Below the pieces are notes generated by a model. That model was given only the letters and a program-made list of their open reading frames with translations, did not search any database and had not been told where the DNA came from. A program made the translations under genes and the position numbers. From a virus (Duplodnaviria; Caudoviricetes), in the IMG/VR virus record IMGVR_UViG_3300027813_000065, positions 1 through 27,589 of that record: a stretch of 27,589 nucleotides of DNA. One strand, written 5' to 3'. Positions 112 through 20,330 of the stretch are shown here, one piece after another. Each line of letters opens with the position of its first letter. The first letter of the stretch is position 1.

Positions 112-331
112 TGTAACAGGAGAGTGGTGTTGTACTGAGTGTGGCTCATACAATGCTCACCAAGAAGACTTTAATGATGATGAGACAGGGCATGTTATGG
201 GTTGCCAAGATTGTCATTACTATGATGTGTATAGAGAAGACGCAGAAACAGGAGAAGTAATCGAGAACTATCAAGGTTATGACCACCAGTATGCACAAGA
301 TGATAAAGATAATAAGGAGGAAGACAAATGA
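104..331 (+). CDS. Small acidic zinc-ribbon protein
   Basis: Two CxxC pairs (CTEC, CQDC); strong SD AAGGAGG at 88-94; ATGA overlap with the next gene. Confidence 0.75.
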   Translation: MSSVTGEWCCTECGSYNAHQEDFNDDETGHVMGCQDCHYYDVYREDAETGEVIENYQGYDHQYAQDDKDNKEEDK

Positions 332-807
332 CAGTAGTAGTATGGGATGGCGAAACCTTAGCCACAGACAGACAGGCTAGTGATGGCTCACTTAAATGGG
401 AGACAGACAAAGCATGGTATGTAATGAGAGATGACAAACCTTACATAGTATCAGGGGTAGGATACCTTAAATACATTATAACTTTAAGAGAGTGGTTTAC
501 TAATGGTGCTGACCCTGAGAAGTATCCATACGGATTACGCACAGGGACAAGTAGGATTACCACACAGCAACTTGTTGTCATAGACAGAGACAAAGGTCTG
601 ATAGTTTATGATGACTCACCATTCCCAGTAGAGCAGGGGTTTACACCATGTGCATTCGGAGATGGTAAAGAGTTTGCTTATGGTGCATTAAGTATGGGTG
701 CAACTGCAAGTGAGGCAGTAGGAGTTACTAACGAACATTCTTTACATTGTGGGAAAGGAGTGTCATTATATAGTTTACACGATAGTAAGGTAGAGTATTT
801 ATCATGA
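328..807 (+). CDS. HslV/proteasome-beta-like Ntn-hydrolase (putative threonine peptidase)
   Basis: N-terminus M-T-VVVWDGETLATDRQ with Thr2 as candidate nucleophile; C-terminal AFGDGKEFAYGALSMGATASEAV resembles the GSG..A.GA....A.EAV motif of phage HslV-like proteins; SD AAGGAGG upstream. Confidence 0.72.
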   Translation: MTVVVWDGETLATDRQASDGSLKWETDKAWYVMRDDKPYIVSGVGYLKYIITLREWFTNGADPEKYPYGLRTGTSRITTQQLVVIDRDKGLIVYDDSPFPVEQGFTPCAFGDGKEFAYGALSMGATASEAVGVTNEHSLHCGKGVSLYSLHDSKVEYLS

Positions 808-4131: not shown

Positions 4132-5681
4132 TAGTAGTAGAGAAATCAAAAGCGATAGCATTAAACTTAAAGAATCCTAACAGGGTATTAGACGTTATAC
4201 CTGACGCTAGACAACTTATGTTTAACAACCAGCAACTTGTTGTCACACCACATACAATACCTGCTTCCAGAGCATTACGTACGCTAGGATTTAAAGTACC
4301 CTCACCCATACTACATTATTACGATTGGTGTGGAGACTTTATCCCATATGAACATCAGAAAATGACATCAGCTTTTCTAACTATGAACGACAAAGCATTA
4401 GTACTTAACGAGATAGGTACAGGTAAAACACAATCAGCTTTATGGGCATGTGATTATCTAATGCAGACAAAAGTTATTAAGAAAGTATTAATTATATCAC
4501 CACTATCCACACTCGAGAGAGTATGGGGTGATGGTATCTTCATGGGATTTCCACATAGACAGGCTGTTACACTACATGGAACTAGTGCTAGGAGAAAACA
4601 ATTACTTAAAACCAATGCAGATTTTTTTATTATTAACCATGATGGATTTGGAATTATATCTGAGGAGGCTAAGAATATGTTTGACCTCATCATAGTAGAT
4701 GAGGCGGCTGTGTTACGTAACCCATCCACCAACAAGTTTAAGATACTTAGGAAATATTTATCCCTGCACCCTGATATAAAGTTATGGTTGATGACAGGTA
4801 CACCTACACCTAATGACCCAACAGACGCATGGGCATTGGCTAAGTTAGTAGGTAGTCCCTATGTTAGTAAAACTTATACAGCATTTAGAGAGTCAGTCAT
4901 GTTAAAGATAGGGCAATGGAAATGGATACCAAGACCTGAGTCTATAAATATTGTTAAGCATGTACTGTATCCTGCTGTACGATATAGCAGAGATGAGTGT
5001 CTTGACCTACCTGATACTGTATTTCAGACTAGGAAAGTACCCCTTACTGTAGAACAAAAAGACCACCACGATAAAATGTTAAAGCATTATGTAACAGAAC
5101 TGGCACAAGAAGGCACGATAACAGCTGTCAATGAGGCAGTTAAACTACAGAAACTTGTGCAGATAAGTTGTGGTGTTGTGTACGGAGATGATGGTCAGCA
5201 TATAGAATTAGATTGTGCACCTAGAGTTAACTTAGTTAAAGAAGTTATAGAAGAAGTAGGTGGCAAGGTAATAGTATTTGTTCCACTAACAGGAACACTA
5301 AAGATGTTAGAGAGAATACTCTCAAAGCAATGGAGTGTTGGTGTAGTCAATGGTGCAGTTTCGGCTAATAAAAGAAACAAAATATTCTATGACTTCCAAC
5401 ATACAAAAGACCCTCATGTCTTAGTAGCACATCCTGCAACTATGGCTCATGGTCTGACACTAACTTCTGCTAGCACTATCATATGGTATGGACCAGTGAC
5501 AAGCAACGAGCAATACGTTCAGGCTAACGGCAGGATAGAAAGGATAGGCAAAAAACACGTATCAAACATAGTACATATAGAGGCAACTGACCTCGAACAT
5601 AAAATGTTTGAGCGACTAAAGAACAAACAGAAACTACAAGGTCTATTACTAGACCTAATTAAGGAGGGAACAATCGAATGA
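4128..5681 (+). CDS. SNF2-family (SF2) DNA helicase
   Basis: Walker A NEIGTGKT, motif II IIVDEAA, motif III MTGTP, motif V AHGLTL, motif VI QANGRIERIG. Confidence 0.92.
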   Translation: MIVVEKSKAIALNLKNPNRVLDVIPDARQLMFNNQQLVVTPHTIPASRALRTLGFKVPSPILHYYDWCGDFIPYEHQKMTSAFLTMNDKALVLNEIGTGKTQSALWACDYLMQTKVIKKVLIISPLSTLERVWGDGIFMGFPHRQAVTLHGTSARRKQLLKTNADFFIINHDGFGIISEEAKNMFDLIIVDEAAVLRNPSTNKFKILRKYLSLHPDIKLWLMTGTPTPNDPTDAWALAKLVGSPYVSKTYTAFRESVMLKIGQWKWIPRPESINIVKHVLYPAVRYSRDECLDLPDTVFQTRKVPLTVEQKDHHDKMLKHYVTELAQEGTITAVNEAVKLQKLVQISCGVVYGDDGQHIELDCAPRVNLVKEVIEEVGGKVIVFVPLTGTLKMLERILSKQWSVGVVNGAVSANKRNKIFYDFQHTKDPHVLVAHPATMAHGLTLTSASTIIWYGPVTSNEQYVQANGRIERIGKKHVSNIVHIEATDLEHKMFERLKNKQKLQGLLLDLIKEGTIE

Positions 5682-6091
5682 CTATAAGAATAGTAACTGT
5701 AGATAAAGTTATATCTACATATATAAATTTTAGAAATCAGAAAGAGGCTATTGAATCTGAGTCTAAGGCAAAGGTTAAAGAACTTAAAGAACAGATGGCT
5801 AAACTAGAGGCATGGCTAAAGGAAAGAGCAGACCAAGATGGTGTGGATTCTTTTAAGACAGCCAATGGTACAGCATTTCTAACGACCACTGACTTTGCAC
5901 AGGTAGCAGATTGGGACGCAGTATTATCTTTTATAAAAGACAATGAGGCATTTGATTTGCTTGAGAAACGAGTTAGTAAAACAGCAGTGCGTGGATATAT
6001 TGAGGCTAATAAAGCTGTACCATCAGGTGTGAACTATGGTACACGTATTGATATCAACGTTAGAAAACCAGCTGTTAAGGTGAGTGACTAA
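5678..6091 (+). CDS. Phage coiled-coil protein (possibly Gp157/Gam-like)
   Basis: SD AAGGAGG; N-terminal coiled coil followed by KTANGTAF...DWDAV..FI...LLEKRVSKTAV...VPSGV; function uncertain. Confidence 0.6.
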   Translation: MTIRIVTVDKVISTYINFRNQKEAIESESKAKVKELKEQMAKLEAWLKERADQDGVDSFKTANGTAFLTTTDFAQVADWDAVLSFIKDNEAFDLLEKRVSKTAVRGYIEANKAVPSGVNYGTRIDINVRKPAVKVSD

Positions 6092-10700: not shown

Positions 10701-10744
10701 AGCCTCGAGAAGGCCAGCAATTAAAGGTTGGTGTACTCTAGGCT
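10701..10744. terminator. Imperfect hairpin between the convergent operons (possible bidirectional terminator)
   Basis: AGCCTCGAG (10701-10709) pairs 8/9 with CTCTAGGCT (10736-10744); inner GCCAGC/GTTGGT stem; no U-tract. Confidence 0.3.
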
Positions 10745-13700
10745 ACTGAATATCGTACGCTTCCATTAGTTTTTCTATATCTGGACGAGACCTTTTTGTT
10801 GCAAACTTTTTAAATCTTTCAGCAGCTGGTAACTTCCAAGCGTCATACATTCTATTAGCTGAGGTTTTCCAATCATCTAAATAAAACTCGGTGTTTCTAC
10901 TAGTTCTGTTGTAATTTTTAACAGCTCTTTCAACCCTCCTCATCTCGCCTCTGTCTCCTGAGATTCTTGCTTTAACATATGCCTCAGAAAATTTTGCTTT
11001 AATTGATTTAACATAGTCACCTGTTTGTTTAGTCATACGTATAATATCATTTTGATAGGACGCACTTGCTGGGTAGAAGTTTAAAGCTCTAAGAAATATT
11101 TCATGGAAGGCAACATTTTTATCTAATACTTTGCCTTGCTTGTTAGTAATAACACCATCATCATAATAACTATATGCGTCTGCTATAGCTCTTATACCAC
11201 CAAAAGGTTGTGACCTTAGAACATCTTTAAAGTTTGTTGTGTCATCTTTTATACCAACAACTTCTGCACTCCAGTTTGTAAGTAAAGTTAGAGCAGATAC
11301 TGTTTGGTCTCCCGCTGCCCATACAGGACCTAAGAAGTTTTGAGTTTCTCTCCAAGGGTCTGAACCTGCTTTAGCAATACCAGTTAGTGGTATTAAATCA
11401 CCGAAGCCTAACCTTGTGGATATAGTACCTCCACTAAATTTATCTATGACTCCCCTCATTACCAATGGTGACATTCCAGGGGCAACCTCTTCAATAAACA
11501 TATTTAATTCTTTCTCTACTGTGCCCATTTTAATGCCAAACATTTGAGTTAATGTGTCAATTAAATCTGTAATATCTTCTGCAAAAGGTAATCCTTTCAT
11601 ACCTGATAGTAAGAACAGTAATGCTAAGAAATATATTCTTTCGTTCCTACCTAAGTTTTTCATAAGCTCAACACTAATAAAAACAAACTGCTTATACATC
11701 ATTATAGAATTAAGTAGCGGACCTCTAGATATCTTAGGTCTGTTGAACATAGAGTACTCACCTTGAGATGTATTTACTGCTACCTCAGCAAACTGTGCAG
11801 CTAAACCTTGAATCTCTATATCTAGTTCTGCTTTTCTTTCTTCAGTTATACCTTCTACATTATACTTAGCATCGTTTCCTGCTCTAAGTTTTTCTTTTTG
11901 TAATCTGTAAGCTGCTAAGAATGTAGCTCTTCTGTTAAGTTGTTCTGTGTAAGAAAACAATGTCATCCATTTTTTAAGGAAACCAGATGTGGTGTTTGTC
12001 ATACCACCTCTTGCTGAACCTACTAGTGCATTGTACTGAGCGGCTTGAAGCACCCCATCAGATGTTGCTCTATGTAAAGCTTGAGCTTCATCTTCACTTA
12101 TATTATATTCATCTTGTAATAGTTTAGCTTCGGCGTATCTTGTTTTATCTATCTCGCTAACATCTGTCTTAAGAGCATACCTACCTGTCTCACGGTCATA
12201 GCCAGTTACTTTATGCATAAAATCTAAGTTAGCTAAACTTTTTGATAGTCCATCTTCCGTTAAACCTAATCTTGTTTTTATACCATCACTCATTTCACTA
12301 ACAGCTCTTAGCATTGCTGCAGATGAAGCAGATATACCAAACCCACCGCCGTAACCAGTCTTAGGATTATAGGTTGCAAGGAACGGTATACTATGAGTAA
12401 CCATGGACATTGAATTAATTATAGCAGTTGCAACAGAACCACCTAGTTGAGAAGACACTGCTAATATTTTAAGGTTCTGTCCTAGTTTACTAGTTTCAAG
12501 AACATCTTCTGTTGAATCTACTATGTTGTCACCGCTACCATAGTAAGCTAATAAATCGTTGGCAGTCTTTCTATACTCTTCACCCCTACCTTCAGGCTTA
12601 ACTTGTTTAGGTGTTCTTACATTAGCAAGTACACCTGTCATTTCGTATATAGTAATGTCACCTTTAGAACTTTCTAAAGTAGGTGCACTATATCTATACA
12701 TGTTAGCGTACTCATCATAATTTGCTCTGGCTAATTGTTTTTCGGCTTCGTTAGTATTATCTACAGTGTCTACTCTATCCAAAGTTTCTTTTAATTCATC
12801 TAGTAATTCTCTATCACCTAACCATTTTTTTTCATCAGATATAACATTATTAAGTTTGTGTTCAAAATAAGTTTTACCTGCTAGATGAGACTGTGCTCGT
12901 AAGTACATGGCTTGAGTTCGTACTACATCTGGGTCCCAACCTGCTTTACCAACACGAGGTAGTTTGTTTCTAGCTGCTGACCCTGTTTCTGTAAGCCCTT
13001 TAATAACTTTATCTTTATCTTTAGCAGAAAGATTTATACCTAAGGCATCAGCAATTCTTAAGAAACCAGTTAGGTTTTGGTCAAGCGACATTAAAGATGC
13101 TGTTCTAGCTTCACTAATTCCTGGTTCTAATGTAACTTCAACCTCTTGGTCCGATGAATCTTTAACTACAAATAGGTTTTTACCAAAATTTTCTCCAACT
13201 TTTATTTGTATATCTCTAGCATCATCTCCGGATTCAACTTGAAAGTATGGCATAGCATTTTTATATTGGTCGGCAAGTTTTATTATTTTTCTATCTTTGT
13301 CAAAGGCTATAGTCTCCACTTGATACTTACCACGTCTAGCAAATTGTACATAGCCTGTCATTAAAGTACGCTTAGAATTAAATTCTATCTGCCTATTACC
13401 TTCTTCTAGAGCAAATAAAGTTTTAATAGTATTAGTTATTTTATTAGCTTCGGGATTCCCTTGTTTACTTACTTTAAACATAGCGTTTAATTCGTCTAAC
13501 CCCTCTATAATTCTTGCGTATTTTTCTATAGGAAAAGCAAATATAGGTTGAGCATCTGTGTTTGGTTTGCTAGTATTCTTATCCCAATCCGTTGGCTTAT
13601 AATTTTGTTCTACACCTACACCTGCGTTACCATCTCTCCAGTCTTTAAGTTTTAATGGTTCAAACAAAGCACGGTTAACTTCCCTTATAAACAAGTCAGA

Positions 13701-16700
13701 CTTAGCTTTAGCTTTAGTTGTATAATCTGTTTTCCTACTACCAATCGCCTCTTCTTGGCGTAGCTCTTTATACTTATCCATAATTAGTATGAATGTTTCT
13801 CTAGCCCCAGTTAAGTTTGAGTCTTGGCCAACACTTTTTAAGAAGTTATTTATTGAATCTTGCCTCTCAAATTTACCTGCATCAAGACTTGATTCAAACA
13901 CATCTATAGCTGACTTACTAATAGCTTTACGCATCTCTAAATATATTTTATAAATTCTAGGGGTAATTTTAAATCCATCCTCGTTAGTTTCGCCGTGAGA
14001 CTTACCATCTTCGGGTATAAATTTTCTTGATTCAAGATTACCTGTGTCATCTTCTATAGATATATCGTATGGTATACCCTCTATAAATTCTTCTATAGTT
14101 ACTAGACCCATGTCTTCTAATTCTCTTGCAGCCTTACGATTAATAATCTCTTCAGTTGAACCGTCTTTTATTTCTCTTAAGCTAGATGCTTTTTCAATAG
14201 TTGAATCTTCACCGTTTTGTTTAGCTCTGTATAAAGCTGCAAAAGAAAGTAGCTTCCCTGCATTTTTTGTTTCTAAATCAGTAGGCCCTACATTTCCTGC
14301 TTCGGTACCACTTTTATCAGTGTCTATAAGTTTTTTGTACTGTTCGTTGGTTGTAACAGTTTCTTCCCCTTTATATTTTGTATCGAACACATTTGGTTTG
14401 GTAGAGAACTGAGTTAATGTTTCATAAGTTCTTTCTAAACTTTTTATTTTTTTAGATTGCATACCAAAGATGTTAAATAGATTTCTTAGTCCTTCGTTAC
14501 GAACAGATATATTACCTAATGTCTGCATGTATTCTAATGCCGACCCTATAGCTCTTGGTAAATCTAATCCTATTTTATTTTTTATCAGCTGACTAAATCC
14601 ACCGAAGGAACCGAAGGAACTGAATGCACCATTTGAAGTTATACCATTCATCGCAAAGACAGACGCTGGTAAATCAGTGTTGTGTTGTTCTGTATTAAAT
14701 CTAGTTTGCGTAGCCCTGTCATACTCATCTTCTATATTACTTACAAGTTGATTTAAGTTAAAGTAACTACCACCACCTGTGCGTAAGTTCCTACGTGATT
14801 GACTTAGTATGTATCTCGACAAGTCATCATCAAATTTAATACCAATTTTATTTAGGAAGTTTTTTATTGCAAACCATATTCTTTGTATAGCTGATACATC
14901 TAAGGTAGCCGCTGCGTTAGCCATGGCTTCTTCAATAGCTATGTATTTATCCATACCATTTTTTATATGCATGTCTGCAACAGCTTTGATATGACCTTCG
15001 CTGTTATATAAATCTTCTAGTACTGCATTTAGTTTACCGTCGGGGACGAACGCTCGTAGTCCAAAGTGACCTAACGTTTCGTGAGCTACTATAAATTTTA
15101 ATTGCTCTTCAGTTTTAATGTTGTCAGCAAGCACAACAATCTCATCACCCAATGCAAAAGCTGCAAAGTTTGTTGTATCAAAGTCTCCTTGTTGCCTACC
15201 TGCAACTGCTCTTTCGTATAGCTCAGGGAATTTAGATTCTAGTTCTGCTTTATCTTTAACTACTGTAGCTTTAGGTTTTAGTTGGAGTTTGCTTAGAGCT
15301 TTATTTACAATAGCTCTGACTCTAAGTATAGGTACTGGATTTTTAATAATAGAACCATCAAGTCTAAAGAAGGTTGTATCATCTGGGTCATCATCTACAT
15401 CTGCTAACAAATCGTCTATATCTTTTTCGTCTAAAACTTTTTTAGTTAAGAACGCTTGACCTTGTGGTGTATCTTTTGTTTTTTTCTTAGCTTCTTTGTC
15501 AGCTGCTTTATTTTCTGCTTCTGTTTTAATACGAGTTTTTCTCTTTAGGTTAGCTGCTTTAACTTTTTTTTCTTCCTTTAAGTCGGCTGCTTTATTTTCT
15601 GCTTCTGTTTTAATACGAGCGTCTCTTAGTTTTAAACCTTGTTTTGTTATAGGTTTAAATATAGGACTATTTTCAACTGATGTAGTTCTATAAGTTATTA
15701 ACTTACCTTTGTCAGTAAAGTAATCGCTAAGTAATGTGCCTTCTTTATCTAATCCATAGTTCTTATCTTCATCTGATAATTCTGCAAATTTTTCTTCTAT
15801 TCTTTTTTTAGGTTTACTTCTTGCTAACTGTTTTATTGGTACTGTGCCAGGTGCTTCTTTTATTTGGTTTCTAATCAGGTCATGAATTTGAATAGCTGTG
15901 TAATCTGGCTCAGTGTCAGTAACACCAGTTTTTTTAACATCTTTTGGTTGGTTTTTTGCTATTATTTCAGCCGCACCAGTAAGAGTAGATTTTCTACCCA
16001 GTTTTTTTAGTCTCTGGTCTATTACTGCTTGATACGTGCCTCTTCTTTTAGTCCATGCAATAGTTTCTTTTATTGTAAGCTCTGATTTTTTTACTGTACC
16101 AGCTAAACCTGTAGCTCCTTCTTCATATATTTTAGTTGTAAGCCTATCAAATATTATATCGTCTAATACAGCGGCTTCGTTTTCAGTGTATAGTCCTGTG
16201 TTTGCAAAATAAGTATCTAAAAAATTACGAGCTAGTGTGTTTGCTTCATCATTAAATGTAGTATCCCCATAAATTTTATTTCGTTTATCTAACCAACCTA
16301 TATCTACTATCTCTGCTAATAAACTTTCTTTAGTAGCATTATTTGAAAGAGCTGCTTTATACTGTGCTCTACGCATTTTGGTGTATGCTGTTGGTTCTAC
16401 ACCTACATCTATAAAGTCTTGCTCAGTCAAGCCAAGGAACATATCTCTAATTTCTTTCGTATCTATTACTGTACTTTCTTTTACAGCTGTACTTATAAAA
16501 TCACTTATTGGTCCAGGTATTTTTCCTATAAACTCAGCCCCAGGTATTAACGATTTAATATTATCCCAAGCTTCTTGTGTGTCTTTGTATTCTGCCTTAA
16601 AGTCTTTTGGTTTTTTTCTAGCCCTTCTTATTTCATCTATTTCTTCTTGGCGTAAAAGTTCCTCTATTACTTTATTTTTCCTCGTGCTATCGCTTGATTC

Positions 16701-19700
16701 CGTAACAGGTTTTTTGTCAGTTTGCCCAGTGGTGTCTTCTTCTTTCTCAACTTGTAGTTTTTTCTTTCTTTTCTCCGTTTTTCCGACAGGCTTTTTAGTC
16801 CCAGCCTCGTTGGTAGTGTTAGAGTTTTCGGCGTTTCCTGTAGTAACTGTTTTGCTACTTCCGGTTTGTTTGCCTGTAACCACTTCAGTTGTTCCTTGCT
16901 TCGTATTGGCATTGTTTTCACCTCTTTTTAAATTGTTTTGTTTTATTCGTGGATTGTAAGGAGCATAGTTTCCATCAAAATTTTTGTCTGCTTTAACTAC
17001 TGACCCAAAAATAGAGCCACTAGGAAAAACTTTTCTCTTTTTTATTAAGTCAGGTTGTTTTTGTGCAGCCTCTAGTGTTTGGTAAATTATGGGTGCTAAG
17101 GGTTGTGTCTCAGCTGGGTTGAGTATTCTGTTAACATTAAATTCTGCAATTAATTCTTCAGGGCTAAGTAGGTAATTAAAAAATGTTGCGTCTATGTTCT
17201 TACCTTTTTTCTCTGCAGCTAATATTTTCTCTCTAAGACCAGGATACATATAGTTTTCTATAGCTTTTAGTTCGTCTTTTATAGTTGATTGGTTATTTAT
17301 ACCTGCACCATAATACGCATGTGAAGCATGGCCTAGTTCATGAGCTAAAAGATTTGGTACAACATTTCTTATACTTGGCCATCTACCATTAATTACAATA
17401 CCCCCTCTATAAAAAGCACCTTGATAGAAAACTACTTTACTCGTATCTACTGTATTAGGATTTTTTGCTATCACCATTATATTAAATAGTATATCCCCAT
17501 AGAGTTCTTTTAAGCCTTCAGGTGTTATGTTGCCTCTATTCTTTTGGACATAATCTATACTTTCAAATAGGTTTTTTCTACGGTCTGGGTCAGTAATATT
17601 ACTTTCTTCTGTACCACCTGATATTTCATCTGGAGCATTATTTTTAGACATTCTCTTTTGTCTTTTTACAGTTAGCTCAGGTGCGTTACTTTCATCTACT
17701 AAACTTGGTTCTTCACGAGGGTCAAATTTAGTCTTAGCTCTATCTACTGCATTTATTTCTTCAGTAGTTTCAGGTAAGACATCTGTTGTTCCTTGCTCTT
17801 TATTGGCATTTGCTTTTCTTTCTTCAGTTATACCCTCAAATTCTTCTTCTAATGCAGCTAGCTCAGCTTTTTTTTCTCCTTTTTTATAAAGGTCTCCATA
17901 TCGGTTTTGTATTTTATCATCCATGCTGTTTTTCGCATCATCTTCTGCTAAAATTGCTTCCACAACTTTTGCTTTTTCTTCTTCTTCGCCTGCTGTTGAA
18001 TCTTTTTTATCTGTTGCTATTGTTAGTGGTACTGATAATAACTGTAAGTACCTCTGTATTGCTTCGATATCAGCTACTGTGTTTCTATGCTCTAAATTAC
18101 CTGTTTTACCTTCTCTCTCTAAAGTAACTTTCCTACTTAATTTTCTTGTTAGTAAGTTAGATAGTTCTTCTGTATTTGCTACTTCTTCTCCTCTAGTTAA
18201 GTAATCACTTATTGTTTTACTTCTACCTTTAACTTTTGGAACAGATTTAAATTTGTATACTGATAAAGCTGTTTTATCAAGAGTTTTTATTTCAGCTAAT
18301 GTTTGATTAAATTTATCTTGAACAGTTAATTTTGTTTTACCTGATGTTGTAGTTGTTTTTTTACCTGATGTTTTTTTACCTGATGTTGTAGTTGCAGCTT
18401 CTGCAATTTTTAAAATTTCTTCAGCGTCTTTTATTCCTTGGTTAGTATCTGTATCTTTTGTTTCAGTAGTTGTTTCAGATGTTTCAACATTAAGTTCTAA
18501 TTGGTCTCCTTCCTTTTTGTTTTTGTTTTCGTTTTTGCTTATTATTTTTTCTAACGCATTTATTTCTTTTTTAGTTGTAAGGTCAGGTATATTTGTTTGA
18601 CTAGATACAGTAGCAACTTCTGGTGTATCAGGCACTGGCTCAAGTTTATTTAATTCTCTAGCATCAGTATTAAGTCTATCCTTAACAGTTCCTTCAGTCC
18701 CAGGTAAAGGTAGTTGTTGACCTATACCTGGGACTCCAGTTGTTCCTGATAAAGTTGCAGTACCTGTTGTAAGTTTTTCTTTACCTGATAAAGGTGCATT
18801 AGATATGGGTGGCTCTGTATTTGTATTACTTGGGTCTAATATATTTGCACTAGGTTTAGAAAGTAAGTTAGCTGCACCACCGATTGGACCACCAACAAAG
18901 AATCCTGCTGCAAACGCATTGATTAATCTAGTTCCAACTTCAGGGCTATTAATATCAAACTGTCCTGTGTTAGCTAGTATTAAACTTTCTTGTGCTACCT
19001 CTGTTGTACCTTCTAATGCACCACCAACTCCAAATCCTTTTAATGCTCTTGATGTTCTTCCACCTTGGTCAGTTCCTTCTAGTAATGTTTTGTTTATTCT
19101 TTTTGGGCTAACTTTAAATATTCTTGCAGCCAAAAGAAACTCAGGGAGCATCTCCATTGCAGCATAAGGTATTGCAGTAAGAGCCGCAGACACCCTATTA
19201 TCTTGACCCATCTCTCTTTGCTCGCCGTATACGTCTCCAAGACCTATACCATAACTACTAGTTCCAACTCCTAATGCAGCACCACCTGATATAGCTTGTC
19301 CTTTACCTACGTCACGTATTCTTTGGGCAGCTCCTGGTACTCCATCATCTATAACTACATCAAGTTTAGCTTTATTCTTTTTAAGGATTGCTTGTTTATA
19401 ACCTGGATATACTGCTATACCCATAAGCTTATTAGGATTTTGTCGTTCAGCAACAGCCGTTAAGCTTGATACCTCACGAAGTAATTTTTTATCCCCATCA
19501 CTAAGAGAGCCTTTGCCCTTTTTATAGTTCTTAGCTGCTTTTATTACAGCACTTTTATAAGATGCTTTGCCCATAACAGCAGCTATTGCACTACCTACAG
19601 CAGTAAATGGATTACCGCCTGCTACACCGCCAGCTAAACCACCTAATAATGCAGCTGCTACGGATTCTATTAAGTTAGGACCTTGTTGAGCAAGGTTAGC

Positions 19701-20330
19701 TATGAACCAATCTATAGCATCATGAGACTCATTTGCATCTCCGTCTGATATGTAGCCTGATTTAATATTAGTAAACTCTCTTTGAAAAGGCTCATTCTTT
19801 TCTAGCTCTCTAACAGCTGAATCAACCCATCCTTGTCCTGTCTCTTCAGCTCCAAAAAATTGTGCTGCTCTTCCACCCAATAGCTTTAGGTTGCTACCAC
19901 CTATATCAAAGTTTTCTGCAGCTAGTCTGCCTGCTTGTGGGTTTTTAATTCCTCTAATGTATGAGCCGTAGTCTTTAGGGTTAACTCTTGACCAGTCTGT
20001 TGCTACATTTCTAGAGGGTTTTAATGGTCTGTCTTTAAGTTTTTCTACAGACTCTAATGCTGTCTTAGCGTCGTCATCATCAAACATCAAGCCGTTGACA
20101 AACATCTTTCTAGTGCTTGGGCTATAAAAAACTTGAGGGGTTTCATCAGGTGGCTCATAGCCAATAGCATCAGTTGTTGCTTGCATATTAGCAAGTAGTG
20201 CTTGATTACCTAATTCTAACTCACTAAGAGAAGGTACATTATCTATTCTTTGGGCAACGCTTTCGGCACTAGGTATACTTTCAGCAACGCTTTCAGCAGT
20301 GGGAGTATACAAACCTGCACGTATTGCCAT
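10743..20330 (-). CDS. Giant (3195 aa) internal virion/ejection protein of polyvalent type, with two zincin-like metallopeptidase motifs and a PLxRFG-like C-terminal region
   Basis: Last gene of the structural arm; SD GAGGT; Gly/Ala hydrophobic N-terminal helices; AHELGH...EELIAE; AHETLGHFGL...EEAMA; GYVQFARRGKY; FSYTEQLNRRATFLAAYRL...SQGEYSMFNRP. Confidence 0.75.
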   Translation of the reverse strand: MAIRAGLYTPTAESVAESIPSAESVAQRIDNVPSLSELELGNQALLANMQATTDAIGYEPPDETPQVFYSPSTRKMFVNGLMFDDDDAKTALESVEKLKDRPLKPSRNVATDWSRVNPKDYGSYIRGIKNPQAGRLAAENFDIGGSNLKLLGGRAAQFFGAEETGQGWVDSAVRELEKNEPFQREFTNIKSGYISDGDANESHDAIDWFIANLAQQGPNLIESVAAALLGGLAGGVAGGNPFTAVGSAIAAVMGKASYKSAVIKAAKNYKKGKGSLSDGDKKLLREVSSLTAVAERQNPNKLMGIAVYPGYKQAILKKNKAKLDVVIDDGVPGAAQRIRDVGKGQAISGGAALGVGTSSYGIGLGDVYGEQREMGQDNRVSAALTAIPYAAMEMLPEFLLAARIFKVSPKRINKTLLEGTDQGGRTSRALKGFGVGGALEGTTEVAQESLILANTGQFDINSPEVGTRLINAFAAGFFVGGPIGGAANLLSKPSANILDPSNTNTEPPISNAPLSGKEKLTTGTATLSGTTGVPGIGQQLPLPGTEGTVKDRLNTDARELNKLEPVPDTPEVATVSSQTNIPDLTTKKEINALEKIISKNENKNKKEGDQLELNVETSETTTETKDTDTNQGIKDAEEILKIAEAATTTSGKKTSGKKTTTTSGKTKLTVQDKFNQTLAEIKTLDKTALSVYKFKSVPKVKGRSKTISDYLTRGEEVANTEELSNLLTRKLSRKVTLEREGKTGNLEHRNTVADIEAIQRYLQLLSVPLTIATDKKDSTAGEEEEKAKVVEAILAEDDAKNSMDDKIQNRYGDLYKKGEKKAELAALEEEFEGITEERKANANKEQGTTDVLPETTEEINAVDRAKTKFDPREEPSLVDESNAPELTVKRQKRMSKNNAPDEISGGTEESNITDPDRRKNLFESIDYVQKNRGNITPEGLKELYGDILFNIMVIAKNPNTVDTSKVVFYQGAFYRGGIVINGRWPSIRNVVPNLLAHELGHASHAYYGAGINNQSTIKDELKAIENYMYPGLREKILAAEKKGKNIDATFFNYLLSPEELIAEFNVNRILNPAETQPLAPIIYQTLEAAQKQPDLIKKRKVFPSGSIFGSVVKADKNFDGNYAPYNPRIKQNNLKRGENNANTKQGTTEVVTGKQTGSSKTVTTGNAENSNTTNEAGTKKPVGKTEKRKKKLQVEKEEDTTGQTDKKPVTESSDSTRKNKVIEELLRQEEIDEIRRARKKPKDFKAEYKDTQEAWDNIKSLIPGAEFIGKIPGPISDFISTAVKESTVIDTKEIRDMFLGLTEQDFIDVGVEPTAYTKMRRAQYKAALSNNATKESLLAEIVDIGWLDKRNKIYGDTTFNDEANTLARNFLDTYFANTGLYTENEAAVLDDIIFDRLTTKIYEEGATGLAGTVKKSELTIKETIAWTKRRGTYQAVIDQRLKKLGRKSTLTGAAEIIAKNQPKDVKKTGVTDTEPDYTAIQIHDLIRNQIKEAPGTVPIKQLARSKPKKRIEEKFAELSDEDKNYGLDKEGTLLSDYFTDKGKLITYRTTSVENSPIFKPITKQGLKLRDARIKTEAENKAADLKEEKKVKAANLKRKTRIKTEAENKAADKEAKKKTKDTPQGQAFLTKKVLDEKDIDDLLADVDDDPDDTTFFRLDGSIIKNPVPILRVRAIVNKALSKLQLKPKATVVKDKAELESKFPELYERAVAGRQQGDFDTTNFAAFALGDEIVVLADNIKTEEQLKFIVAHETLGHFGLRAFVPDGKLNAVLEDLYNSEGHIKAVADMHIKNGMDKYIAIEEAMANAAATLDVSAIQRIWFAIKNFLNKIGIKFDDDLSRYILSQSRRNLRTGGGSYFNLNQLVSNIEDEYDRATQTRFNTEQHNTDLPASVFAMNGITSNGAFSSFGSFGGFSQLIKNKIGLDLPRAIGSALEYMQTLGNISVRNEGLRNLFNIFGMQSKKIKSLERTYETLTQFSTKPNVFDTKYKGEETVTTNEQYKKLIDTDKSGTEAGNVGPTDLETKNAGKLLSFAALYRAKQNGEDSTIEKASSLREIKDGSTEEIINRKAARELEDMGLVTIEEFIEGIPYDISIEDDTGNLESRKFIPEDGKSHGETNEDGFKITPRIYKIYLEMRKAISKSAIDVFESSLDAGKFERQDSINNFLKSVGQDSNLTGARETFILIMDKYKELRQEEAIGSRKTDYTTKAKAKSDLFIREVNRALFEPLKLKDWRDGNAGVGVEQNYKPTDWDKNTSKPNTDAQPIFAFPIEKYARIIEGLDELNAMFKVSKQGNPEANKITNTIKTLFALEEGNRQIEFNSKRTLMTGYVQFARRGKYQVETIAFDKDRKIIKLADQYKNAMPYFQVESGDDARDIQIKVGENFGKNLFVVKDSSDQEVEVTLEPGISEARTASLMSLDQNLTGFLRIADALGINLSAKDKDKVIKGLTETGSAARNKLPRVGKAGWDPDVVRTQAMYLRAQSHLAGKTYFEHKLNNVISDEKKWLGDRELLDELKETLDRVDTVDNTNEAEKQLARANYDEYANMYRYSAPTLESSKGDITIYEMTGVLANVRTPKQVKPEGRGEEYRKTANDLLAYYGSGDNIVDSTEDVLETSKLGQNLKILAVSSQLGGSVATAIINSMSMVTHSIPFLATYNPKTGYGGGFGISASSAAMLRAVSEMSDGIKTRLGLTEDGLSKSLANLDFMHKVTGYDRETGRYALKTDVSEIDKTRYAEAKLLQDEYNISEDEAQALHRATSDGVLQAAQYNALVGSARGGMTNTTSGFLKKWMTLFSYTEQLNRRATFLAAYRLQKEKLRAGNDAKYNVEGITEERKAELDIEIQGLAAQFAEVAVNTSQGEYSMFNRPKISRGPLLNSIMMYKQFVFISVELMKNLGRNERIYFLALLFLLSGMKGLPFAEDITDLIDTLTQMFGIKMGTVEKELNMFIEEVAPGMSPLVMRGVIDKFSGGTISTRLGFGDLIPLTGIAKAGSDPWRETQNFLGPVWAAGDQTVSALTLLTNWSAEVVGIKDDTTNFKDVLRSQPFGGIRAIADAYSYYDDGVITNKQGKVLDKNVAFHEIFLRALNFYPASASYQNDIIRMTKQTGDYVKSIKAKFSEAYVKARISGDRGEMRRVERAVKNYNRTSRNTEFYLDDWKTSANRMYDAWKLPAAERFKKFATKRSRPDIEKLMEAYDIQ
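15498..15619. repeat. Direct repeat, 34 bp exact (15502-15535 and 15586-15619), 84-bp period, encoding RIKTEAENKAAD twice
   Basis: GCTGCTTTATTTTCTGCTTCTGTTTTAATACGAG occurs twice. Confidence 0.9.
16667..16912 (-). CDS. Nested out-of-frame small basic protein (81 aa, MPIRSKEQLKWLQANKPEVAK...) inside the giant gene
   Basis: +1 frame on the same strand; AGAGGTGA SD just upstream of ATG 16912; N-terminus resembles recalled small basic phage proteins of the MP(F/I)KSxxQxxW(L/M)xANxPE type; locally raised CpG. Confidence 0.6.
   Translation of the reverse strand: MPIRSKEQLKWLQANKPEVAKQLLQETPKTLTLPTRLGLKSLSEKRRKERKNYKLRKKKTPLGKLTKNLLRNQAIARGKIK
16888..17810. repeat. 26-bp imperfect direct repeats (16888-16913 and 17785-17810, 23/26 identical), 897 bp apart
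   Basis: GTTGTTCCTTGCT-TCG-TATTGGCATT versus GTTGTTCCTTGCT-CTT-TATTGGCATT; in the giant protein these read NANTKQGTT and NANKEQGTT. Confidence 0.8.
18335..18394. repeat. Short tandem duplications encoding TTTSGKKTSGKKTTTTSGK
   Basis: TTTTACCTGATGTT three times; 21-bp TTTTACCTGATGTTGTAGTTG at 18335-18355 and 18374-18394. Confidence 0.88.

Follow-up and report, generated by a model that had tools for sequence, protein, structure and literature searches.

The locus described here raises the question of whether a small open reading frame (ORF) that lies out of frame within a giant phage gene is a gene in its own right and, if so, how it came to lie there and what its product might do. The DNA concerned is the IMG/VR virus record IMGVR_UViG_3300027813_000065 (Duplodnaviria; Caudoviricetes), whose whole stretch of 27,589 nucleotides (nt) is referred to as the window; the ORF, termed P0001, encodes 81 amino acids (aa) in the +1 frame of a 3195-aa gene. 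Comparative sequence analysis confirmed P0001 as a real, selected coding frame. Its relatives form a family whose members occur free, overlapping an upstream ORF or fully nested in one of three host genes.

The nested frame in the window

An earlier reading of the letters alone, referred to as the original prediction, had placed a Shine-Dalgarno (SD) sequence in front of an ATG at position 16912 in the +1 frame of the 3195-aa gene. Direct reading of the sequence and mapping of the frame agree with this, and the features are positioned in the window as follows.

16667..16912, minus strand: nested +1-frame gene P0001, 81 aa, net charge +20, with ATG at 16912 and TAA at 16669-16667.
16919..16926, minus strand: Shine-Dalgarno-like site AAGAGGTG, read directly from the sequence, with a 6-nt spacer to the nested ATG.
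16808..16912, minus strand: family core, residues 1-35 of P0001, from alignment and structure prediction, with two predicted short helices (6-15 and 17-26).
16670..16807, minus strand: subfamily extension, residues 36-81, with a predicted basic helix (42-59) and then a tail, selected in the peptide frame too.
10743..20330, minus strand: host gene, a 3195-aa giant (class A), probably encoding an internal-virion or ejection-type protein.

The feature had been delimited as 16667 to 16921; the nested gene itself stands, its upper boundary does not, as 16921 is an in-frame GTG inside the SD that would give an 84-aa version of P0001, and the ATG start is at 16912. P0001 spans codons 1140-1222 of the host ORF, which at this site reads, as had been described, as a low-complexity T/K/E/N linker. 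Its ORF is the sole one of at least 60 aa on the same strand within the giant gene, so that its reported uniqueness holds for ORFs of this size, and its stop-free stretch of 86 codons is the longest in both alternative frames of the giant (runners-up 49 and 42). The predicted Lys/Arg-richness of the product is equally evident, with 17 K and 8 R, thus 25 of 81 residues, against 5 D/E (isoelectric point 11.4), as is the excess of CpG: 10 are seen in the 246 nt, compared with 3.8 expected gene-wide and a mean of 4.06 under a synonymous-codon null (P=0.003). Folding of the mRNA near the nested start is weak and unexceptional, 15% of sampled windows being equally open. A promoter scan of the window stayed at chance level (4 found, 3.2 expected), and a terminator scan returned terminators on the opposite strand only. 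One further open frame crosses the site.

16378..16959, plus strand: antisense ORF of 193 aa across the site, regarded as a shadow cast by the A-richness of the coding strand.

Among homologous loci the antisense open stretch at this place ranges from 0 to 285 codons.

Could P0001 be a chance open frame arising from an A-rich low-complexity linker? The window-only statistics are modest (P=0.02-0.04) and to that extent favor such a view: under the synonymous-codon null, P is 0.023 for the stretch at this position and 0.037 for any +1 stretch of at least 84 codons. Since 2.3% of sequences under this null keep the stretch open, the window by itself gives no more than a suggestion, and the homologues are decisive. 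The existence of homologues and stand-alone copies, the conservation of the SD and the codon-phase selection described below refute a chance frame, which is left with practically no probability.

Conservation in homologous giant genes

For this comparison, 80 giant-gene loci were gathered by the C-terminal domain alone, without using the peptide.

10848..12512, minus strand: conserved C-terminal domain of the giant (phrog_11358, E 5e-45; NCBIfam NF032893 PLxRFG domain, 160.7 bits, cutoff 100).

The counts given for giants take the 39 loci with the 5' end present, some of which are near-duplicates, and leave out 41 5'-truncated loci. A nested +1 peptide is found in 33/39 of these giants, and a profile made from stand-alone copies only scores the peptides at 29-71 bits; among the 41 truncated giants five have a nested peptide, with one more at a contig edge. 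An SD match of at least 5 nt precedes all 32 unique class A nested starts (32/32), compared with 113/2603 other +1 ATGs in the same genes, and 17/29 of the giants' own starts. In all 29 unique long class A peptides the residues M1, S5, Q8, W11, N15, P17, A20, T27, L33 and P34 are invariant, and within the extension G63 (27/29) and N68 (28/29) are conserved.

The distribution of substitutions follows the nested frame. Between the window and the homologous locus L001, differences at host codon positions 1/2/3 amount to 0.46/0.17/0.09 inside the segment and to 0.17/0.12/0.26 in the distal gene, indicating that the variable position has moved to the wobble position of the peptide and away from that of the host. 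The identity of the peptide exceeds that of the host frame in 6/6 nested or overlap groups (0.77 vs 0.48 in the clade of the window), and conservation of the C-terminal extension is 0.45 in the peptide frame vs 0.27 in the host frame (29 unique long peptides). These codon-phase comparisons show that purifying selection acts on the nested frame, across which the giant reads as a tolerant linker. Hence the original prediction, according to which the peptide should have relatives, the +1 frame, SD and ATG should be conserved among homologous giants and synonymous variation of the host should be suppressed, was borne out on each of these points.

Against this background it may be asked whether P0001 is a relic frozen in the giant and kept solely by selection on the host protein. 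Such a relic would be in line with the loss of the gene in several lineages and with the one metatranscriptome run sampled, which covers a small share of the region and leaves the nested ORF uncovered. However, the host-frame residues are less conserved than the peptide, neither the SD nor ten columns of the peptide vary among 29 divergent peptides, and the change in codon phase of the substitutions likewise speaks against it, so that a relic appears very unlikely. A second alternative is a programmed +1 frameshift, stimulated by the SD, from the giant into the nested frame, whose product would be a shortened giant ending in a basic tail. The nested frame is indeed always +1, and SD-stimulated +1 shifting has a precedent in prfB. 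Against it, the start codon never varies and lines up with that of the free genes; in the window a stop lies 5 codons upstream of the ATG in the +1 frame, and in 38 class A loci the open stretch ahead of the start measures anywhere between 2 and 79 codons. Nor is a common slippery sequence visible by eye upstream. A frameshift is therefore hardly probable. As the preferred mechanism, ribosomes would start internally at the nested ATG by means of its own SD, on a late message, and from the conserved signals we regard translation of the nested gene by this route as highly probable.

A family of free, overlapping and nested members

A word-index protein search with P0001 returned only P0001 itself, and a full HMMER search returned 6 relatives. 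The family set comprises 93 loci: the window, six annotated phage loci, 6 from a scan with the peptide, and 80 retained out of the 296 stretches confirmed when a six-row alignment served as the query. Of these, 48 are fully nested, without exception in +1, 39 stand alone and 6 run over the 3' end of a preceding ORF; one of the latter (L056) is a giant cut by the contig end. In the frame that a host would use, each of the 33 unique stand-alone copies has 1-8 stops and the nested copies have none; the stops beside the stand-alone copies mark the peptide frame as the meaningful one. Similarly, the Phe codon preceding Lys is TTC in 34/34 nested copies, where a host stop must be avoided, and TTT in 17/25 stand-alone copies. 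All 72 unique members counted are positively charged, at a net +6 to +20. AlphaFold2 (58 sequences) predicts helices at 6-15, 17-26 and 42-59 with a mean pLDDT (predicted local distance difference test) of 86.

The family has free members that begin with MPFKS, in agreement with the proposed likeness of the N-terminus to stand-alone small basic phage proteins, and we refer to the family as MPFK-type. The expectation that standard annotation would miss the nested gene is exemplified by a cultured Elemovirus, Flavobacterium phage elemoA_7-9A, in which the copy is unannotated inside a structural gene. Unannotated stand-alone copies were also seen in Synechococcus phage S-CBS2, phage C75C1 and Prochlorococcus phage P-RSP2 (L090:5001, L091:5001 and L092:5001). 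No match to P0001 was found in Pfam, NCBIfam or PHROGs, nor by sequence in the PDB (0 matches); Foldseek against PDB structures listed a single row at E 7.6, the clusters from the ESM Atlas were all viral, without names and below 0.9, and the best Z in VIA-align was 3.1, for generic helices, in a comparison that barely tested residues 1-37. A literature search, covering few subscription journals and no bioRxiv supplements, returned no account of the family or of its nesting. In a protein collection, one cluster pairs a 531-aa fish protein with a 53-aa phage peptide, which is probably a clustering artefact.

Strict de novo overprinting of the peptide was considered and rejected, since the nested frame is the widespread one: the family is free in 39/93 loci and nested in unrelated hosts.

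Three unrelated host genes

The 48 nested copies are distributed over class A giants (24), class B giants (14) and a gene of about 390 aa (10). Profiles of the class A N-terminus, the class A C-terminus and the 390-aa protein gave no cross-matches among the three host classes under E 0.1. Class B includes phage elemoA_7-9A, the structural gene concerned being gp21. The 390-aa gene is flanked by a portal gene and a capsid-sized 'virion structural protein' gene and is termed scaffold-like by position only. Among 80 scaffold-like genes gathered by their C-terminus, the peptide is found in 47/80 by profile and in 62/80 by motif; the +2 control frame shows it in none. In four complete class B records the same scaffold family is present without a nested copy, the peptide sitting in the giant instead.

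In these two classes the nested starts lack an SD, with none among 60 scaffold-like and none among 13 class B starts (0/60 and 0/13). Bacteroidetes mRNAs are described as lacking SD sequences (PMC6847099), so that this absence would be expected of Bacteroidota-type phages. Richness in A at -3, -6, -12 and -13 of the SD-less starts would fit the Bacteroidetes pattern; as it is confounded with the Lys/Glu codons of the host, it was not counted.

Several irregular scaffold loci were observed. The 105-kb record G014 (L259, L263, L265, L269), one of the four complete class B records above, has two scaffold-family genes and two giant-nested peptides, which may represent joined related genomes or a duplication. 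In G012 and G013 (L267, L268, L270, L271) the match to the scaffold family is broken up between frames and contains stops, due to a frameshift or an assembly error. Much-diverged nested variants that keep only the first family residues lie in scaffold-like genes at L191:2274-2381, L250:2268-2396 and L193:1806-1931; one type begins with MPFKH, the others have two Cys.

Loss, exchange and origin

Giants without the peptide sit within clades that have it, requiring at least 3 changes on a quick, unfinished class A tree that carries long-branch warnings, and the scaffold-like genes require at least 5 gain/loss changes. In one giant (L134) the linker block has been lost. In two others, L140 and L142, the same slot holds a different basic ORF of 59 aa, again in +1 and with purine-rich upstream sequence; these slot-replacing peptides match phrog_2423 (E 2e-8 and 1e-7) and gave no match to Pfam DUF6496. 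A scan with this type found it nested in +1 at 9/80 loci, 7 of them class A giants, and at two phrog_2423-type loci the giants are about 60% identical to giants with the MPFK type. The positions of this second family are L140:6030-6206, L142:5943-6119, L274-L280, L283 and L284; the giant of L283 and L284 has no match to the host set and is possibly a further host class.

The original prediction had proposed that a formerly independent gene was engulfed by read-through fusion. As stated, this is not supported: giants without the peptide remain single unbroken ORFs, and the occupant of the slot changes. Scaffold-like genes with and without the peptide have a common N-terminus, related phages place a single copy in different host genes, and separate genes flanking a free small gene were not found among the 80 giant and 80 scaffold loci. 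Whole records without a nested copy, searched for a copy elsewhere, gave 0/5 and 0/5, the second set being 59-77% complete; as this search missed a known divergent copy in record G015, it is weak evidence.

In-frame insertion, loss and exchange thus fit better than read-through fusion. Since hosts without the peptide are unbroken, the scaffold N-terminus is common to both forms and the slot changes its occupant, it seems likely that the gene enters disordered linkers of late genes as an in-frame stop-free cassette which is repeatedly lost or exchanged. Two points weigh against the overall explanation of the nested gene: the gain/loss trees are unrooted as to direction, and the gene is dispensable in some lineages, with 4/39 giants in which no small basic ORF was found and 18/80 scaffold-like genes without the peptide. 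An ancient fusion may nevertheless have occurred, because five 3' overlaps show extension of the upstream ORF and split giants are seen in F116, where p59 and p60 are separate genes and the peptide is absent. In these five overlaps (L027, L034, L068, L070, L071) the upstream ORF is a CxxC gene of about 100-120 aa in a non-structural region, its 3' end running into the peptide gene, a possible engulfment intermediate; a RusA-type gene was confirmed close to the L027 copy.

A putative role at the phage head

With regard to function, for which the original prediction had tentatively suggested DNA binding or condensing, the 81-residue basic protein would probably bind DNA in or at the assembling phage head, its helical core docking on a partner and its Lys/Arg tail neutralizing the DNA. 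From the positive charge, gene context and distant homology we lean towards such a head or packaged-DNA role. The principal alternative is that the nested gene is translated and its product acts in the infected cell, as a nucleic-acid-binding regulator, an inhibitor of a host enzyme or a lysis accessory.

Gene neighborhoods bear on both. By family, annotation or position, each of the three host classes that carry a nested copy belongs to the structural or morphogenesis genes, and several stand-alone copies adjoin portal, scaffold or head-morphogenesis genes (L021, L063, L077, L084), both of which argue against an intracellular role. Furthermore, P0001 has on inspection no hydrophobic segment or lipoprotein signal. 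Conversely, some copies lie outside head modules, namely the five that overlap the CxxC gene; gp48 of Streptomyces phage FlowerPower has a peptidase on one side and a holin on the other, and Cyanopodovirus-like copies lie upstream of lysis and terminase genes.

Distant relatives provide a second line. Comparison of folds among predicted viral structures pointed to a 60-aa protein of Mycobacterium phage Barnyard, presumed from its length and motif to be gp9, which compares with the family profile at an hhalign probability of 94.8 and with phrog_1375 at E 3e-24. Relatives of Barnyard gp9 occur in 486 phage records, including Patience gp10, and both proteins are encoded directly downstream of portal genes. 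The phrog_1375 profile is matched weakly by eight family members (E 1.5e-4 to 5e-3) and is not matched by P0001 itself. In the Patience study, gp10 is given as a virion protein (Table 1), with stringent spectra (Table S1) of 1 in the particle as opposed to 4 (30 min) and 2 (2.5 h) in infected cells (PMC4324244). These data show that the distant relative is expressed and lend thin support to its packaging.

The predominance of infected-cell spectra, the distance of Patience gp10 from the family (hhalign probability 53, E 1.4e-4) and the copies outside head modules, including FlowerPower gp48, all count against a head role. Proteins rich in K/R yield few usable tryptic peptides, and low spectral counts therefore say little. 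Taken together, an intracellular role appears plausible yet rather doubtful.

Two runs of small genes right after portal genes were observed in these phages: in L272:6119-8337 (Barnyard genes 8-15) several are very K/R-rich, and in L273:2226-4376 (Patience genes 111-14) several are well represented in particle mass spectrometry. Identity of the family with the Patience gp4-type capsid accessory protein was considered and dropped, since Barnyard gp3, so annotated, is unlike it by eye, without alignment.

Comparison with known nested genes

Classical overprinting is represented by phiX174, with E in D and B in A. As there, two proteins are read from one DNA stretch on the same strand; in the classical cases the nested frame arose de novo, whereas here the nested protein is widespread and the host linker would be the derived by-product. 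The likeness is closer to lambda Rz1, which lies in the +1 frame of Rz as a small gene wholly inside a larger late gene with a tolerant host linker, and to embedded spanins generally, which also have overlapped and separated forms and are often unannotated, 196 o-spanins having been unidentified in a survey (PMC6139136). In the same survey no spanin family was seen to combine embedded with overlapped or separated members (PMC6139136). Spanin pairs, moreover, are functional partners, whereas the MPFK-type family is embedded, overlapped and free, has three non-homologous hosts and shares its slot with a second, unrelated family. An embedded o-spanin of the Rz1 type was rejected for P0001, which is without Cys, lipobox or membrane segment and whose host is a 3195-aa PLxRFG-domain protein.

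Members of phrog_1375 such as Barnyard gp9 and Patience gp10 share the type of core motif, FKSxxQxxW...A..W...T...K.LP, and the strongly basic character; they differ in being stand-alone, in having a basic N-terminal extension and in being without the N-terminal Met-Pro and the invariant Pro17 of class A. Patience also has out-of-frame ORFs embedded on the same strand inside annotated genes, shown by mass spectrometry to be translated and in one case preceded by a strong ribosome-binding site (PMC4324244). These embedded ORFs are, according to the authors, generally not conserved (PMC4324244), in contrast to P0001, which is conserved in divergent phages and has free homologues.

Genomic context of the window

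The window constitutes a virus record that is 51% complete, whose plus strand encodes a replication module and whose minus strand encodes virion genes. The role of the giant as an internal-virion or ejection protein is probable from its place after phrog_511 and from homologues annotated as 'structural protein'; its C-terminus matches structural proteins of F116-like phages at about 27% identity. A scan of GTDB genomes for the bacterial host of this phage confirmed no relative. Within the replication module, positions 5678-6091 (+) match phrog_13900 'minor head protein' (E 4e-28), flanked by a helicase and a gp2.5-like gene, and an HslV-family peptidase-like gene (phrog_1040) lies at 328-807 (+), immediately 5' of the DNA polymerase.

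Implications

The nested genes known from phages come in fixed pairs, Rz/Rz1 among them. The MPFK-type gene, being free, overlapped or embedded in three unrelated hosts and lying in an exchangeable slot, offers a natural series in which to study how genes come to overlap and why they do so in +1. It also represents a widespread uncharacterised phage protein hidden from gene callers in many genomes, including those of cultured Elemovirus phages, which make the question directly testable. Tentatively, it might be speculated that small basic genes form a concealed layer in the genomes of tailed phages, moving as portable stop-free cassettes among disordered linkers of unrelated late genes, and that at least two such families, unrelated to each other (MPFK-type, phrog_1375-like; and phrog_2423), can replace one another in a single slot since both would do the same job as packaged, DNA-neutralizing head peptides. 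If this were true, much of what is taken for low-complexity linker in phage structural proteins would arise as the by-product of a gene that annotation has missed.

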